40,029 nt of DNA, taken from Enterobacteria phage mEp390. Below, one piece after another: positions 20,749-28,926 of this stretch. The position numbers were made by a program, and so were the translations under genes. The DNA is taken from sequence record NC_019721.1. One strand, given 5' to 3'. Each line of letters begins with the position of its first letter. The first letter of the stretch is position 1. Under the pieces are notes generated by a model. That model saw only the letters and a list, made by a program, of their open reading frames with translations. It was not told where the DNA came from and searched no databases.

Positions 20749-20988
20749 ATGCCTCGTCAACTTGATATACGTGCAGCCTTTTTAGCGGCCATACAACAGA
20801 ATCCTAAGGGATATCTTTGTTTGAACACTGACAAATTCATCACTGAATTGCGCTTTAGGAATTGGCATTTCAGCCAGGCAGATGCCAATGCCTGGATTAA
20901 GAGATACCAACCAGACTTTGCTGATAAGACGACGGATGGAAGCGATAACCGTTACTGGATCTTGCGTAATATGGGGAGGGTTTTCTGA
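20749..20988 (+). CDS. hypothetical protein, first gene of putative SOS-controlled operon
   Basis: 79-aa ORF with GAGAGGG RBS, 25 bp downstream of LexA box; stop overlaps next start (ATGA). Confidence 0.5.
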   Translation: MPRQLDIRAAFLAAIQQNPKGYLCLNTDKFITELRFRNWHFSQADANAWIKRYQPDFADKTTDGSDNRYWILRNMGRVF

Positions 20989-21308
20989 TGGGCTTTCCTT
21001 CACCTGCTATGGATTACCAGGAACAGCGGTTAACCATAGATCTGTTATGCGGAATTGATGGGAACTGCAGGGTAATAGAAACATCCTGTGGTTGGGCAGT
21101 GATTAACATTGCTCTAAGGCCAGAGCAGGGAGATACGCTACTGGTAAGAATGGATAACAGGAACGAGTTTGCAAAGCTATACGGGGCGGCATTGATAACT
21201 GAAGATGGTGAAGCGATAGAAGGCGACGCGCTGGATGATGTGGAAGTGTTTGGTGTGCTAACGCATAGTCTTAACCGCGTTTGTAATGATGATTGCCCAG
21301 CCATTTAA
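20988..21308 (+). CDS. UmuD'-like S24-fold protein lacking N-terminal tail and probably the catalytic dyad
   Basis: begins M-GFPSPAMDYQEQR, matching the UmuD segment just after its Cys-Gly cleavage site as recalled; C-terminal VEVFGVLTH resembles UmuD DVFGVVIHV; no SGDSM motif seen. Confidence 0.5.
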   Translation: MGFPSPAMDYQEQRLTIDLLCGIDGNCRVIETSCGWAVINIALRPEQGDTLLVRMDNRNEFAKLYGAALITEDGEAIEGDALDDVEVFGVLTHSLNRVCNDDCPAI

Positions 21309-23270: not shown

Positions 23271-23579
23271 TTAGGCATGGCGTTTTCTCTCTGCCGGTAA
23301 TGGAGGGATATCCATCCACATGATAACCCTCACAATAACACCTTCATTCCCACGCCACTCGTCAGATTCGCAATCGTAGCAGGATGTAATCGCAACGCCG
23401 TAATCTGTCTGGACCAGGTAAATCCCGTTACTTTCAGGTTTAATTTCTGATGCATCATTCCAGATAGGAATCGGGCCATTGCGGTATATCTCCTGAAGCT
23501 CCCGTGCCATGTGGTAGGCGATGTGCCTGCGCCCAAAATCACGAACAACCTCTTTGAGCCTTTCATGGGAAATTGTCAC
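23271..23579 (-). CDS. hypothetical early protein (DUF551-like)
   Basis: 102-aa ORF, overlaps next gene stop; lambdoid early-region family by recollection. Confidence 0.45.
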   Translation of the reverse strand: MTISHERLKEVVRDFGRRHIAYHMARELQEIYRNGPIPIWNDASEIKPESNGIYLVQTDYGVAITSCYDCESDEWRGNEGVIVRVIMWMDIPPLPAERKRHA

Positions 23580-24505
23580 GGCTTCACCTCCTGCTGCGGT
23601 GCTGCTGCAATCATTGCCTTGTGCATGGCGTCGTATCCGTCTTCCTCTACGCGTGCGGCGGCGTCGATCATTGCTCGTGTCGCATCAACCGGCACCAAAA
23701 CCCAACCATCCGGAATCACCGGAGAGTTGCCACCGGCTTTGATGTGCATACGCGGTTCGCCGTCTTTCGGCTCCGGCCACTGGCGCGCCATGTTCTCTTT
23801 CAGCTTTTCTTCCATCGCTGCTGTGATTTCACCGTCACTGATACCGGCGCGGCGCTGGGCATCCCATAGCAGGAACTGCATATCAGCCCACTCGCTGAGG
23901 TCGTCAGGTTCGGCGGCTGCCTCCAGCGCCTCTTTCGAGAGGTGTTTTAGTGGACCTATGGGGCCAACATCACCGAACGTAGCCTGTGACCACTCAGCAT
24001 GGCGCTGACGGATGAGATTGCGTAACTGCAGCGATGATCCAATTTCTTCGGGCAACTTGTAAGCCGTCGTTACAGGTTCGGCACCCTGAAGCATGGCGGA
24101 TCGGCGTGACAGCAGTCTTTTAGCCTCAATGCTGCCTTCTGCCTCAAGCTCTCCTTCAGCCTCTAAGCCACCCTCAAGGTATTCAACCACATCAGCAATC
24201 CACTGCTCCCACGCACCTGGCACTGCCGGCGCTGGCGGGGCGGTGTACAAGGGGCCGCACTTCCAGCCAGCATCTAGTGCTTTTTTTGCCCCAATGCGAT
24301 TGATTCCTTCGTCTGGATTATCCATATCAACATCTCGCTTACCGTCACGCTCCCACATCCACGCCACAGGCTCCGCTGCGAGCGATGCCAGCGCGATACG
24401 CGCCAGTTCGTGAACCTCCCACTCTTCTGCATTTGCCTGACAGTCGCTTCCCTCAGAATTGAACTGAAGGAGGTTTGCTACGCGTTCTCTGGTAATAGTG
24501 CTCAT
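23576..24505 (-). CDS. early protein with C-terminal DUF550 / MazG-like nucleotide pyrophosphohydrolase-like domain
   Basis: 309-aa ORF; segment HAEWSQATFG...EWADMQFLLWDAQRRAG resembles the dATP/dGTP pyrophosphohydrolase domain family. Confidence 0.45.
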   Translation of the reverse strand: MSTITRERVANLLQFNSEGSDCQANAEEWEVHELARIALASLAAEPVAWMWERDGKRDVDMDNPDEGINRIGAKKALDAGWKCGPLYTAPPAPAVPGAWEQWIADVVEYLEGGLEAEGELEAEGSIEAKRLLSRRSAMLQGAEPVTTAYKLPEEIGSSLQLRNLIRQRHAEWSQATFGDVGPIGPLKHLSKEALEAAAEPDDLSEWADMQFLLWDAQRRAGISDGEITAAMEEKLKENMARQWPEPKDGEPRMHIKAGGNSPVIPDGWVLVPVDATRAMIDAAARVEEDGYDAMHKAMIAAAPQQEVKP

Positions 24506-25011
24506 GATGCCTCTCCTTTACCGGCTGCGGCGGCGATACGAAAAAGTTTAATGTCGCCACTGTCTGAGTTCTGCTTACTCCAGATAAGTGACGTTTCTCG
24601 CCCACGCTCGTTGATATGCATGAGATTTCTTTCGTCTGTAAAGCATGCAGGAATGAAAGCTACAGGGAGTGGATAGAGGGCAACTGCATCATCACCCCAT
24701 TGCTCAACTGCATATTTCTCATCGGTTGTGAACCTCGACATGAATGATGTGACGTTAGCGCTCCTCATCCATGCCACTGGCTTAACCTCCCGCGCCTCCA
24801 GCTCAGCAATCCGCTTCTCTGCGGCTTCCAGCTCATCCAGCAGCGCCAGCACGGTTGCGGGGTTGGCTGCGGCAATAAATTTGGCGTCCGTCCGGTGAAG
24901 TGCAAGACCATAGTCGCTAGCCAGTTGATCTTCATTCCACCAGGTCTCTCCTTCTTCTGAGATGGCCTTCTCTGCCGCTTCCCGTAATGCGCGTTTGTCG
25001 ATGTTGCTCAT
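24502..25011 (-). CDS. Ea22-like early protein
   Basis: 169-aa ORF with N-terminus MSNIDKRALREAAEKA typical of ead/Ea22-like proteins as recalled. Confidence 0.5.
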   Translation of the reverse strand: MSNIDKRALREAAEKAISEEGETWWNEDQLASDYGLALHRTDAKFIAAANPATVLALLDELEAAEKRIAELEAREVKPVAWMRSANVTSFMSRFTTDEKYAVEQWGDDAVALYPLPVAFIPACFTDERNLMHINERGRETSLIWSKQNSDSGDIKLFRIAAAAGKGEAS

Positions 25012-25664
25012 TGGGCGGCCTCCTGGCGGTCTATGCGTTCAATTTCAGCCAGAATAAGTGCGCCCGCTTTCACCAGGTCACGGCGTGGATTTGTAGGTTT
25101 CCACCATTCTGGTGCCCACGGCCAGTCCAATGGAATTCGGTTAAAGGAATGGATGGTATTCAGTACGTAGCATGAGGATGCCCACAATAACTGGGATTCT
25201 CCGTACTGGTCGTCATGCTCAGGCGTCCAGCCCTCAACAGATTGCTGGCGTTGACGCTCTGAAATCACTGACTGAACTGCATTGGATAGCGATTTCACAC
25301 CGCTGGCCCGCACTTCAGCCAGAAAAGCGGATGTCGCCGGGGTGCTTTCGAGAAATTGCCTTGTCTTTTCAAGAACGCACCAATCCGGTACAGCTGCACC
25401 TGAAAGCGATCCATTGCCACGGCGTTCTCCTGTATCGCATGAATTGAATATCTCAAGAAGCTGAGTCTTCAGCCCCGCATTCTCCGCAGCCAGCGCCTCA
25501 GCATCATTGCGAACCTTACGCAGTTCCAGTACAGCAACCTGAACTGCATAAGCGAACATAGCGCAAGGGCGGTTACAGTCTGTCTCAGCATCGCGCTGCA
25601 TGTTCACTGCAACAGTCATCAGCTCATCCAGCTGTTCGGCGGTCATTGGTTTATTGGCTGTCAT
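25008..25664 (-). CDS. hypothetical early protein
   Basis: ORF on the minus strand; start chosen at ATG with AGGA RBS 9 nt upstream (track ORF extends to 25805). Confidence 0.45.
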   Translation of the reverse strand: MTANKPMTAEQLDELMTVAVNMQRDAETDCNRPCAMFAYAVQVAVLELRKVRNDAEALAAENAGLKTQLLEIFNSCDTGERRGNGSLSGAAVPDWCVLEKTRQFLESTPATSAFLAEVRASGVKSLSNAVQSVISERQRQQSVEGWTPEHDDQYGESQLLWASSCYVLNTIHSFNRIPLDWPWAPEWWKPTNPRRDLVKAGALILAEIERIDRQEAAQ

Positions 25665-26685
25665 GATCATTTTCCTGCTGCAGTTTGTATTTCTTAACGA
25701 AGTGGGCCACAGCCTTTGACTGGCTAGCGGCAATGGTTTTGTCACCCATGTCCAGCCAAACGGTTTTTCCGCGATACAGTGAGGCCCGACCAATGTCTTT
25801 ACCATCGAGCATCACATACAGAGTTCGTCCGCGAATTTCTGTGGTCGGGACTGGCTGTGACAAGCGATACGTTTCACGCGCTTCCGCAATCGCTTTGTGC
25901 TCATCCATAATTGCCAGCGCTTCAGCAAGGGCAGTTCCTTCAAGAGTGAAAACACCTTCATCACTGATCGTCGCCTGAGCCATCAGCTCAACAAAACGGC
26001 GCGCGTTCTTTACGCTAAGTTCCGGCGCGATAGAACTGCGGGTAACTTTCTTTTTGCCCTGGGCAGCCGCTACAGCCTTATCATGCTGGAGAACTTTTCC
26101 GGCCTGTTCGCCATACTCCATAACGCGATCAACTGCGACGTCTACTGACACCGCACCGGATTTAACTTCCTGCTGAACGTCATGGTTCGCAGTGCTCAGG
26201 AGAAGCAATTTCTCTACCGTGGCCACTGACTTATTGACCAGTTTTGCTATTTCGCTGGTGGTCTGGTTGAACGCGTTATGTAGCTCCTGAATAACTGCGG
26301 CCTGTTCCATATCGGAAAGCGGTAGTTGGTTGTTACTGGTCATGATTCGCGCCAGCCGCTGAACATCGTTACCGTTGAACGGCATGATGTGGATGCGGTC
26401 TACTGGCTTGCCAGCTTCAGCACAGCGCGCATAGCAGCGACGGCGGCGGTGACCTTCGACAACCCATACACCACCTTCATCACGGGCGATAACTTCCAGC
26501 GGTGGAACTGATCCGCCGTTCATCAGGTAGTTAAATAGGTCCTCATCAGCCTGGCGGGTGCGTTCATCATCTTCACGTTTGTTGAAACCTTCACGAACAT
26601 GGATATCGGAAAGGGCGATAAACATCCCGGTATCGGTGCGCTTAATTACACCGGCCTTGGTCATTTGCTTGAATGAGTTAGCCAT
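25651..26685 (-). CDS. ParB-like nuclease domain protein
   Basis: ParB N-terminal signature VVEGHRRRR; start chosen at internal ATG (MANSFKQ) with GAGG RBS (track ORF extends to 26820). Confidence 0.6.
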   Translation of the reverse strand: MANSFKQMTKAGVIKRTDTGMFIALSDIHVREGFNKREDDERTRQADEDLFNYLMNGGSVPPLEVIARDEGGVWVVEGHRRRRCYARCAEAGKPVDRIHIMPFNGNDVQRLARIMTSNNQLPLSDMEQAAVIQELHNAFNQTTSEIAKLVNKSVATVEKLLLLSTANHDVQQEVKSGAVSVDVAVDRVMEYGEQAGKVLQHDKAVAAAQGKKKVTRSSIAPELSVKNARRFVELMAQATISDEGVFTLEGTALAEALAIMDEHKAIAEARETYRLSQPVPTTEIRGRTLYVMLDGKDIGRASLYRGKTVWLDMGDKTIAASQSKAVAHFVKKYKLQQENDHDSQ

Positions 26686-27044
26686 CAGAGAGCAACCTCG
26701 TTCTTCATGGAAATCACCACAGGAGGCAGTTCGCGCAGTTCTCGCTGAGCTTCCAGCAAGTGCATGTTGGTAGGCGTTTTGGTGTGGCGCTCTTCGATGC
26801 GGTCGCACTCTTTGGCCCAACTGGCAACATCCTCACGTAGGGTGGCGTTCTGCTCAGCCAGTTCCTTCCGCTGCGCCATCGCTTCACAGAGCGCGACGCT
26901 GGTAACATCAAGGCGTGTAGCCAGTTCATTAACCATCCAGCCGTAAGCGGCAGGAAGGAGAGAGGCGGCCTTACGAGCTGAGTCGATAAGTTGCTCCCGT
27001 GTCATGCGTGGTTGTAACTCGGTGACGTTCTGTGTGTTCGTCAT
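26685..27044 (-). CDS. hypothetical coiled-coil early protein
   Basis: start chosen at ATG with GGAG RBS (MTNTQNV); stop overlaps next start. Confidence 0.45.
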   Translation of the reverse strand: MTNTQNVTELQPRMTREQLIDSARKAASLLPAAYGWMVNELATRLDVTSVALCEAMAQRKELAEQNATLREDVASWAKECDRIEERHTKTPTNMHLLEAQRELRELPPVVISMKNEVAL

Positions 27045-27870
27045 GGATAGTTTCTCCGTGTTATAAGCGCTCTGCACAGCGCTGATTTTTGGTTGCACGA
27101 ATCCCTCGCCGTTTGGCGACAAAAAATAAAGGGGTTTCGTTTTAGTAAGCACCCAACCAGGGCACTTAGTGAAACGGGCGGCTGCCACCACCAATTAGCT
27201 TCTCCACAATTGGGAGCGCGTTCCCCTGAGTTGATTTAACGACTGAGGCCTCTCAAGGAACTGGCCGAACGCGCTTTCAGTTGTGAAAAGGGGCGGTCGA
27301 CATTAAGGACATTCACAACTGCCGACCGCCAAGACTACACACAGCATCTGGTACAGCTACTACGGTTTACACAACTGGAAGCGCACTCCGTTCGTTTACT
27401 TACCTGTCATCCACAACCGATAGTTGATGGAATGCGCTTTCATGTTGTGTGCCGGTCTTTCCCGGCTGTCAGTTCTTTATTGCCATTTGAACTCATCGGC
27501 CTAACGTGTTTTAACGACCTTTCCCGTTTGCATAATCTTGTCGCGGCGGTTATCGCTGCCGAAGCGCCACTGTCCAGGACATTTATCAGGACCGTCTCCA
27601 AGTGGTAACTCTTCCAGTCCCGCTAAGCACCTGCAGAGATGCTTAGCGTGATTGGCTGATATCCTCGTCTCTTCCGAGGTGTCACACCGTATCGCCACGC
27701 TGGTGAAGCGTCTCTGGCTGTCGTACACAACTGTCTTGCACATTCCGGCTACCCGCTGGATCTGGATACTGAAAGGAATCCACGGACCGCTGCGGCACAT
27801 GTGCCATATACCGTACTGCTTACTACCACACCGGCGCAGGTAAATGTCAGTACCTGTGGCGTGATTTAAA

Positions 27871-27921
27871 TGTAGGATATCTTACTTCATTGTGTCAACA
27901 CTTAAAGTAGGAAAACTTACA
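27871..27921. promoter_or_regulatory. oL operator sites / pL region
   Basis: GTAGGATATCTTAC and GTAGGAAAACTTAC, same family as the three sites upstream of cro. Confidence 0.6.
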
Positions 27922-27972: not shown

Positions 27973-28629
27973 TTACAGGTCAGTAACTACTTGTTTTACT
28001 ACACCAACAATTTTGCAGTTACCATTTACTTCCATAACACGATAGTTAGGGTTCAGCGGAACAAGATATTTTAATGGCCCATCAATAACAAACTTTTTGA
28101 GAGTTGCCTCAGCAGAACCGACAATTTGAGCGACAACAATTTTTCCATTTACTTCTTGTGGGCTGCCGTAATCGGGGTCCACCACGACGAATGAGCCTTC
28201 CGGGATACTTGGTGCTCCGTTTGGATTTGTCATCGAGTCACCGCGAACACGTAGTGCAAAACCTTCATCTGATAAGCTGGCCGTAGTGAATATCCATTCG
28301 GAAATATCACCTTCAGTTATTGGAGCTCCACTCTCTGTCCATTCCCCAGCCTGTACCCAAGATAGGATAGGGATTTTCTTTACACCAAACTTCTCAGTCG
28401 GCTTATAAAGAATCTCGTCACAGTCTGGATCACCGTGTCCCGTAATTATCCACTGAGGGTTAGTTTTTAAGGCAGCCGCCAGCCCCTGTAGGTTAGAGCC
28501 ACCAGGTTCATAATCACCAGACTCCCATCCTGTAACCGTTACTCGGTTTACGCCTACCAGCTTGGCGAGAACAGCCTGGGTGAGCTTCAGCTCTTTGCGT
28601 CTTGCGCGGATGCGTTCATTCATTTTCAT
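27973..28629 (-). CDS. cI: CI-like repressor (HTH plus S24 autopeptidase domain)
   Basis: 218-aa ORF with XRE-type HTH (LTQAVLAKLVGVNRVTVTGWE) and S24 motifs (GDSM, later Lys); start codon abuts first operator. Confidence 0.88.
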   Translation of the reverse strand: MKMNERIRARRKELKLTQAVLAKLVGVNRVTVTGWESGDYEPGGSNLQGLAAALKTNPQWIITGHGDPDCDEILYKPTEKFGVKKIPILSWVQAGEWTESGAPITEGDISEWIFTTASLSDEGFALRVRGDSMTNPNGAPSIPEGSFVVVDPDYGSPQEVNGKIVVAQIVGSAEATLKKFVIDGPLKYLVPLNPNYRVMEVNGNCKIVGVVKQVVTDL

Positions 28630-28691: not shown

Positions 28692-28728
28692 TATCATGAT
28701 GTGTGTTTCCCTTACATTTGAGGCAAAA

Positions 28729-28926
28729 ATGAAAAAAGATGATGTGGTTTCTTACTTCGGCAGCGTGGGGAACGTAGCGAAGGCATTAGGAATTTCCCAT
28801 GCATCGGTTTCTGGGTGGGGTGAAGTAATCCCAAAAGGTAGGGCATTTGAGATTCAGGCACTGACTTCTGAAAAGCTGAAAGTCGATCCATCCCTTTACG
28901 CAAAGCCTAATCAAAACGCTGCTTAA
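28729..28926 (+). CDS. cro: Cro-like HTH regulator
   Basis: 65-aa product from ATG after GAGG RBS (MKKDDVV...), HTH-like VAKALGISHASVSGW; divergent from cI. Confidence 0.65.
   Translation: MKKDDVVSYFGSVGNVAKALGISHASVSGWGEVIPKGRAFEIQALTSEKLKVDPSLYAKPNQNAA

Follow-up and report, generated by a model that had tools for sequence, protein, structure and literature searches.

A mosaic EaA-type early protein of Enterobacteria phage mEp390 contains a DUF550/MazZ-like domain with conserved active-site residues

The DNA analysed here, referred to as the window, was the 40,029-nt sequence of Enterobacteria phage mEp390 (NC_019721.1), and the gene under study is an open reading frame (ORF) on its minus strand that encodes an EaA-type early protein. 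A prediction made earlier from the sequence alone (the original prediction) had placed this gene at 23576-24505, and this position proved exact. In the ORF list, the ORF occupies 23576..24505 (-), starts with ATG and encodes 309 aa followed by a stop codon. A Shine-Dalgarno-like sequence, AAGGAGAGG, was read from the DNA at 24510..24518 (-), 4 nt upstream of the ATG. The start codon overlaps with the upstream Ea22-like gene, whose stop lies within ATGA. At the other end, the ORF's own stop and the GTG start of the next ORF overlap in GTGA, and AGGAGG precedes this GTG. Based on these overlaps with both neighbours, the ORF is one link in a translationally coupled gene chain. An exact-sequence look-up found no identical protein on record. 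The best relative was 67% identical over 83% of the query, and the best full-length matches were ~55% identical.

The N-terminal module (N-module) comprises residues 1-95 (24221..24505 (-)) and was delimited from PHROG matches and an AlphaFold2 (AF2) model, in which two helices are followed by a small beta-beta-alpha-beta unit. Within this module, the motif PVAWM (residues 46-50, 24356..24370 (-)) forms the left bracket and PLYTAPP (residues 85-91, 24233..24253 (-)) the right bracket of a variable cassette at residues 50-84 (MWERDGKRDVDMDNPDEGINRIGAKKALDAGWKCG; 24254..24358 (-)). Next comes a helical linker in the AF2 model (residues 96-137, 24095..24220 (-)), which includes the sequence EAEGELEAEG, and then a junction (residues 138-156, MLQGAEPVTTAYKLPEEIG; 24038..24094 (-)) that is kept at the start of the core block in relatives. 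The core is a DUF550/MazZ-like four-helix bundle at residues 157-258 (23732..24037 (-)). Its predicted metal-binding motif, E192-x2-E195-x9-E205-x2-D208, was located at 23882..23932 (-) by MAFFT and hidden Markov model (HMM) alignment to MazZ of cyanophage S-2L. The protein ends in a C-terminal tail module, recognized by PHROG matches, at residues 259-309 (PVIPDGWVLVP...AAAPQQEVKP; 23579..23731 (-)).

To the C-terminal half of the protein, the original prediction had assigned a pyrophosphohydrolase-like domain resembling DUF550. The domain was recovered, but its placement had to be corrected, as it forms approximately the third quarter of the protein, ahead of the separate 50-residue tail (residues 259-309). 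In the HMM search, the sole Pfam match was to PF04447 (dATP/dGTP pyrophosphohydrolase, formerly DUF550) with E=2.5e-42 and 143.5 bits, far beyond chance and compared to a curated gathering cut-off of 23 bits. Residues 165-258 covered positions 1-94 of the 97 positions in the model. No significant sequence match to the Pfam MazG models was obtained, the likeness to MazG being at the superfamily level only.

Sequence searches of the PDB by phmmer, either with the single protein or with a profile of close homologues, found nothing. The first AF2 run used a full-length alignment of 82 close relatives and gave a predicted local distance difference test score (pLDDT) of 40-55 for the core and a predicted template modelling score (pTM) of 0.33 for the whole protein. 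The poor score of the core was attributed to its near invariance in that alignment. Foldseek with this full-length model returned only noise (probability ≤0.21) and hence no structural assignment of the N-module or the tail. A further alignment (A3) was therefore restricted to the core and comprised 77 sequences from enterobacterial, actinobacterial and roseophage clades, with a Gordonia-phage DUF550 as the query for the distant clade; the window core is 28-41% identical to the non-enterobacterial rows. A Loktanella phage DUF550 used as query gave three proteins only and added little diversity. The core model from A3 reached a pLDDT of 86.6 and a pTM of 0.74, with helices at residues 159-177, 183-198, 203-219 and 224-240 forming a four-helix bundle, in which the acidic ExxE...ExxD motif lies on helices 2 and 3. 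When this model was compared to the PDB with Foldseek, the four chains of 7ODY (S-2L MazZ) came first, with a probability of 1.00, a template modelling (TM) score of 0.6-0.7 and 27-29% identity. The remaining PDB matches listed were all MazG, YpjD, HisE, RS21-C6 or DR2231 structures. The A3 profile matched 7ODY at E=2.8e-6 and was the only PDB sequence search to reach it, while S-2L MazZ itself matched PF04447 with 44.4 bits (cut-off 23). The central domain belongs to the DUF550/MazZ branch of the all-alpha (MazG/HisE) NTP pyrophosphohydrolase superfamily.

The crystal structure of S-2L MazZ, a stand-alone NTP pyrophosphohydrolase specific for (d)GTP, shows Mn2+ ion A bound by E34/E35/E38, ion B by E50/D53 and ion C by E38/E50. 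R83 touches the beta-phosphate, D60 reads the guanine N2 (2-amino group), and the pocket is completed by K76, N80 and W85 of the second chain (PMC8342488). In the MAFFT and HMM alignments, the metal ligands E35, E38, E50 and D53 corresponded to E192, E195, E205 and D208 of the mEp390 protein, D60 to D215, and R83 to R241, the transition-state arginine, while the partner-chain residues K76, N80 and W85 corresponded to K234, N238 and W243. All of these positions are conserved in 74-77 of the 77 A3 sequences. E34, the sole metal ligand that is not conserved among MazZ-1 homologues (PMC8342488), aligned with K191. The residues G178, H188, E192, E205, D208, R219, K234, R241 and P244, which are invariant in the PF04447 family, are all present in the protein and invariant in the 77 sequences. 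That K234, N238 and W243 have been kept is consistent with, but not proof of, an active site at a chain interface. A codon comparison of residues 162-256 across 26 related loci gave a median ratio of non-synonymous to synonymous substitutions (dN/dS) of 0.08, with dS values of 0.7-3 and synonymous sites near saturation. Based on the conservation of the active site and this signature of purifying selection, the domain looks like a working enzyme under strong constraint.

Judged by sequence and position, the mEp390 protein is the counterpart of EaA of phage P22 (DAA01002.1, 317 aa), its closest relative, which likewise is encoded early-left, upstream of xis and int. In the P22 order erf, abc, eaE, eaF, eaD, eaI, eaA, eaG, eaC, xis, int, the position of eaA equals that of the mEp390 gene. 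By BLASTP, the DUF550 cores share 63% identity (E=1e-49) and the N-terminal modules, related through the pattern MSTITKER...ALASL...PLYxAPP, share 34% (E=4e-7), whereas the cassettes between the brackets are unrelated. P22 EaA lacks a helical linker between the N-module and the core, where the mEp390 protein has ~60 residues of linker and junction. It also ends in DUF551 (PF04448); the mEp390 protein has no PF04448 and carries a different 50-residue tail, and many relatives likewise lack DUF551. A literature search on the function of EaA in P22 returned nothing relevant.

Among characterized proteins, S-2L MazZ (PDB 7ODY) has in common with the mEp390 protein its PF04447 membership, the best structural match, and the retained metal ligands and pocket residues. 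It differs in being a stand-alone protein of 105 aa from the purZ-datZ cluster of a 2-aminoadenine (Z-genome) phage, with two extra C-terminal beta strands. The domain behind the Pfam name is contained in a protein of Acinetobacter phage SH-Ab 15497. According to work cited in PMC12884076, this DUF5664-DUF550 protein converts dGTP and dATP to dGMP and dAMP, and its DUF5664 half is active alone as a dNTPase. The tandem serves Z-DNA synthesis, and the mEp390 protein has no DUF5664. MazZ is key for the enzyme assignment, because the other biochemical basis of the Pfam name is a tandem with an independently active DUF5664. The likeness to E. coli MazG, HisE, RS21-C6/DCTPP1, YpjD and the dimeric dUTPases is at the superfamily level only, and the 9-residue spacing between the acidic pairs is shorter than in the classical MazG motif.

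As both of these nearest characterized relatives have a Z-genome role, the mEp390 protein could be pictured as part of the same pathway, supplying dGMP to PurZ as MazZ does. This is almost certainly not the case. When S-2L PurZ and DatZ were searched by tblastn against the 40-kb window, nothing was found (best E 0.64 and 0.94, respectively), and a Z-genome role was rejected on these grounds. Furthermore, P22, a carrier of EaA, is not among the PurZ-pathway phages of the cited papers. These papers also describe far fewer Z-genome phages than there are members of PF04447, which counts 3604 clusters and 522 phage records.

The 3604 clusters (50% identity) were obtained by a core-only search at E up to 1e-3, with 513 remaining at E up to 1e-30. 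Among the 150 top representatives, the identity of the core to the query was 67-94%, and the core lay anywhere from residue 4 to 310 in proteins of 140-457 aa. By tblastn, the core was found in 522 phage records, including P22-like EaA and Eaa1 genes and Mycobacterium and Gordonia phages. Klebsiella phages accounted for 365 of these records, many of those listed having genomes of ~47-52 kb and EaA-like gene annotations. The relatives lay in 33 genomic loci, almost all from Enterobacterales. Several cluster representatives, P0137, P0149 and P0156 among them, gave two matched stretches to the core query, and these possibly represent tandem or split DUF550 domains.

Modular shuffling had been suggested in the original prediction, and the comparison of module boundaries with homologues gave it strong support. 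In an alignment with eleven relatives, M138-K256 was nearly invariant, while the N- and C-terminal flanks were unrelated or absent. The N-module matched phrog_5117, phrog_660 and phrog_3323, was modelled with a pLDDT of ~75-85 (dipping to 58 at residues 61-70), and was located by tblastn in 146 phage records, with Stx phages and EaA or Ea22 genes among them. The linker, with helices at residues 97-114 and 122-139 at low AF2 confidence, was detected in 5 of 261 relatives and is common to the E. coli relative P0004. The tail matched phrog_12449, phrog_5913 and phrog_17860, had a pLDDT >90 at residues 271-300, and was present in 38 phage records. It also occurs without DUF550, namely in Phytobacter and Eoetvoesiella genomes and in phi80, HK639, phiV10 and phage KKP 3828. 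Module-by-module phmmer searches of the 261 relatives revealed every two- and three-way combination, but the N-module, this linker, the core and this tail occurred together in none of them. The DNA was similarly patchy. The core matched P22-like and Citrobacter phages at 78-89%, the 5' part matched Salmonella phage KKP 3828, and the linker and core matched one E. coli prophage, with the closest patches overall being from Citrobacter, Salmonella, Enterobacter and E. coli phages or prophages. The mEp390 protein is a new shuffle of already catalogued modules.

A core-less relative was found in Salmonella phage KKP 3828 (WLW41038.1, 183 aa; L039:4001-4552). This protein aligned to residues 1-153 of the mEp390 protein (44% identity, E=9e-33) and then directly to residues 259-308 (48%, E=2e-10), being joined at the AAMLQGAEPV and PDGW junctions. 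Since it consists of the N-module, linker and tail without the core, the enzyme domain behaves as an insertable cassette. The functioning of this scaffold without its DUF550 domain, together with the fact that activity has been measured for no EaA protein, would also suit a catalytically dead four-helix bundle that serves only for oligomerization or binding. Such a role is extremely unlikely, as there is little or no variation at the metal ligands, the transition-state arginine and the pocket residues, and the dN/dS is 0.08. From this pattern of conservation, an active enzyme is expected rather than a structural spacer.

The PVAWM motif, reported in the original prediction as common to the protein and its Ea22-like neighbour, is indeed present in both, at residues 46-50 and at residues 78-82 of the neighbour (24766..24780 (-)), where ALYPLP follows later. 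The pairwise evidence was weak, with a BLASTP E value of 0.33 between the two proteins, and some 5-mer was common to both in 8% of composition-preserving shuffles. As stand-alone evidence the motif was therefore rejected. Both proteins nevertheless matched phrog_660 over the same profile region. In relatives, the N-module reads ALASLEAEPVA[W/Y], 22-39 variable residues and (P)LY[T/A]AP, and in the Ea22-like neighbour KPVAWM is followed by 30 residues and ALYPLP. Based on the overlap in phrog_660 and the recurring PVA[W/Y]...LY bracket, PVAWM is credible, solely through this family context.

The residues between the brackets were highly diverse. The 34 unique cassettes among the relatives fell into 25 clusters at ≥40% identity, and their median pairwise identity was 17%, with the left flank at 43% and the right flank at 67%. 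The best match of the mEp390 cassette to any other was 29%. In the AF2 model, PVAW opens a beta hairpin (residues 48-53 and 56-60); a helix (68-78) comes next, and then a strand (82-86) with PLY at its end. The bracket pattern makes PVAWM the conserved left edge of a swappable mini-domain, which supports modular shuffling. The cassette could be a fast-evolving recognition surface for a partner from the host or a rival phage, to which the MazZ-like enzyme would be delivered as cargo; we regard this as a long shot. If it were true, the cargo may destroy a nucleotide immune signal or the local (d)GTP pool, the diversity of the cassettes would record an arms race, and the bracket in the Ea22-like neighbour would point to one targeting system across a set of early-left genes.

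The Ea22-like neighbour itself (24502-25011 (-)) matched PF13935 with E=1.6e-17, while the 309-aa protein gave no match to this Ead/Ea22-like family at E up to 0.1. The ea22 genes are described as mosaics, in which a short N-terminal segment and a coiled coil are combined with a C-terminal domain that can be swapped (PMC10834534). The Ea22 proteins of lambda and Stx phages are early mosaics of the exo-xis region, and the PVAW...LYxxP bracket is found in the Ea22-like neighbour. Lambda Ea22 differs from the mEp390 protein in having no nucleotide-hydrolase domain and in its reported role, which favours lysogeny.

The layout of the window was lambda-like by PHROG and Pfam scans. These scans identified a CI-like repressor gene at 27973-28629 (-), directly upstream of a pL-like promoter, and a Cro-like gene at 28696-28926 (+), with CII-like, O-like, RusA and Q-like genes to the right. 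The pL-like promoter (TTGACA-18-TACATT) was located by consensus scan at 27869..27898 (-). To its left follow a small ORF, a 150-169-aa ORF, a ParB-like gene, a 218-aa ORF, the Ea22-like gene and the 309-aa ORF, and further to the left ORFs of 102 and 92 aa, an excisionase (DUF4224) and a tyrosine integrase. The designation as an early protein is supported by this position, downstream of the pL-like promoter beside the CI-like repressor and upstream of xis and int. It is likely, as judged from the arrangement, that the pL-like promoter drives the operon containing the 309-aa ORF. From this promoter to 22973, the consensus scan found no further promoter- or terminator-like sites on the minus strand, which makes the gene unlike an independently expressed moron. 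Across the 33 genomic loci, tblastn showed that almost none of the synteny of the window's neighbour genes was kept, and the gene context therefore gives no clue to function. NCBIfam and PADLOC gave no match for the protein or its neighbours, the PADLOC library being without anti-defence proteins.

DUF550 proteins are widespread in enterobacterial prophages, and in some PUA-HAD defence systems a MazG-like domain takes the place of the calcineurin-type dNTP-depleting effector (10.64898/2026.01.15.699771). By this precedent, the protein might act as a prophage exclusion effector that depletes the dNTPs of the lysogen and blocks superinfecting phages. We consider this very unlikely, as the gene has no promoter- or terminator-like site of its own and is coupled inside the repressor-controlled pL operon, so that it should be silent in the lysogen. 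The gene is also present in virulent Klebsiella siphoviruses and had no PADLOC match.

Early expression among hypervariable accessory genes, a frequent site of anti-defence genes, raises a different prospect, in which abortive infection is blunted by the domain breaking down (p)ppGpp or another nucleotide second messenger. Hydrolysis of ppGpp, with protection against TIR-STING and retron-TIR toxicity, is reported for Atd1, a MazG-like protein of Pectobacterium phage PcCB7V (preprint 10.1101/2022.06.09.495361). This role has a small but real chance of being correct. Atd1 is described as MazG-like, whereas the characterized PF04447 members act on dGTP, GTP and dATP. A cyanophage MazG is reported to be unable to hydrolyse magic-spot nucleotides (PMC6850273). 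PADLOC, whose library is without anti-defence proteins, gave no match, and the analysis of the protein gave no specific support for an alarmone or anti-defence role.

The protein is probably a MazZ-like metal-dependent purine (d)NTP pyrophosphohydrolase that is produced early in lytic growth, with considerably less confidence attaching to its substrate and purpose than to the enzyme class. By analogy with S-2L MazZ, two chains would pack their four-helix bundles together, placing the active site at the dimer interface. E192, E195, E205 and D208 would coordinate two to three Mg2+/Mn2+ ions near the phosphates, R241 would stabilize the transition state, and K234, N238 and W243 of the partner chain would close the pocket. 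The product would be (d)NMP and pyrophosphate, or two phosphates might be removed stepwise. As the aspartate by which MazZ reads guanine is conserved (D215), (d)GTP is the likeliest substrate, and dATP is a further possibility. The enzyme cassette would sit in a scaffold that also exists alone, composed of the N-module with its hypervariable mini-domain, the linker and the tail, and this scaffold probably provides oligomerization or partner binding. Soon after infection or induction, the protein may serve to trim or sanitize the purine (d)NTP pool. The adjustment of dNTP pools and the countering of nucleotide-based host signalling, both proposed in the original prediction, are speculation.

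Several points weigh against this assignment. The identity between MazZ and the mEp390 protein is ~19-29%, and pairwise BLASTP was not significant. Several of the base-contacting residues differ, with I56 and K31 of MazZ replaced by F211 and H188, in addition to the change of E34 to K191. MazZ I12 is likewise replaced by H169, and with these three substitutions at I56, K31 and I12 the substrate specificity is an inference only and may differ. The module arrangement and oligomeric state are not given by the poor full-length model (pTM 0.33). No enzyme assay is on record for an EaA-type protein from a lambdoid phage, and both characterized relatives are from Z-genome phages, one of them being the tandem with the independently active DUF5664. 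P22 and lambda-type phages have ordinary DNA, and it is therefore not obvious why they would have to break down dGTP or dATP.

DUF550/EaA proteins are already catalogued in number, with the clusters and phage records given above and routine annotation by the Prokaryotic Genome Annotation Pipeline (PGAP), and the mEp390 protein adds little to this catalogue. S-2L MazZ provides a residue-level template that makes the EaA enzymes of temperate phages with ordinary DNA directly testable, and the question raised is why P22-like phages keep a strongly conserved purine (d)NTP pyrophosphohydrolase in the early operon. The most notable aspects are the bracketed hypervariable cassette and the core-less scaffold, which give defined boundaries for domain swaps.

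In Loktanella phage pCB2051-A (L001:368-3360), the deoxycytidylate deaminase and thymidylate synthase genes are followed, two genes further downstream, by the DUF550 gene, a context that fits a dNTP-pool role for at least some DUF550 members.

Within the window, the 102-aa ORF directly downstream of the 309-aa ORF (23271-23579 (-)) ends in ...VIVRVIMWMDIPPLP, and this end was weakly similar to the end of the DUF551 domain of P22 EaA (BLASTP E=0.025). The ORF had no Pfam match even at E up to 10 and no PHROG match at an E limit of 0.01. A DUF551 assignment thus had no support from Pfam; the ORF could be a split or divergent DUF551. Between the ParB-like gene and int, no exo/bet or erf recombination genes were found among the scanned proteins. 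The ParB-like protein of the early-left operon (25651-26820 (-)) matched phrog_1033 with E=6.5e-88 and HTH_ParB. The 218-aa protein (25008-25664 (-), with a longer reading to 25805) matched phrog_9763 with E=2.4e-81 and no Pfam family. Its C-terminal ~95 residues (WTPEHDDQY...WPWAPEWWKP...AGALILAEIERIDR) matched at least six other PHROG families of unknown function at their ends, and this part has the look of one more module that is widely shuffled in early regions. Where the plus-strand block adjoins, just past int, a UmuD-like protein is encoded at 20988-21308 (+) (phrog_3469, E=1e-47), which looks like an accessory gene beside the attachment-site region.

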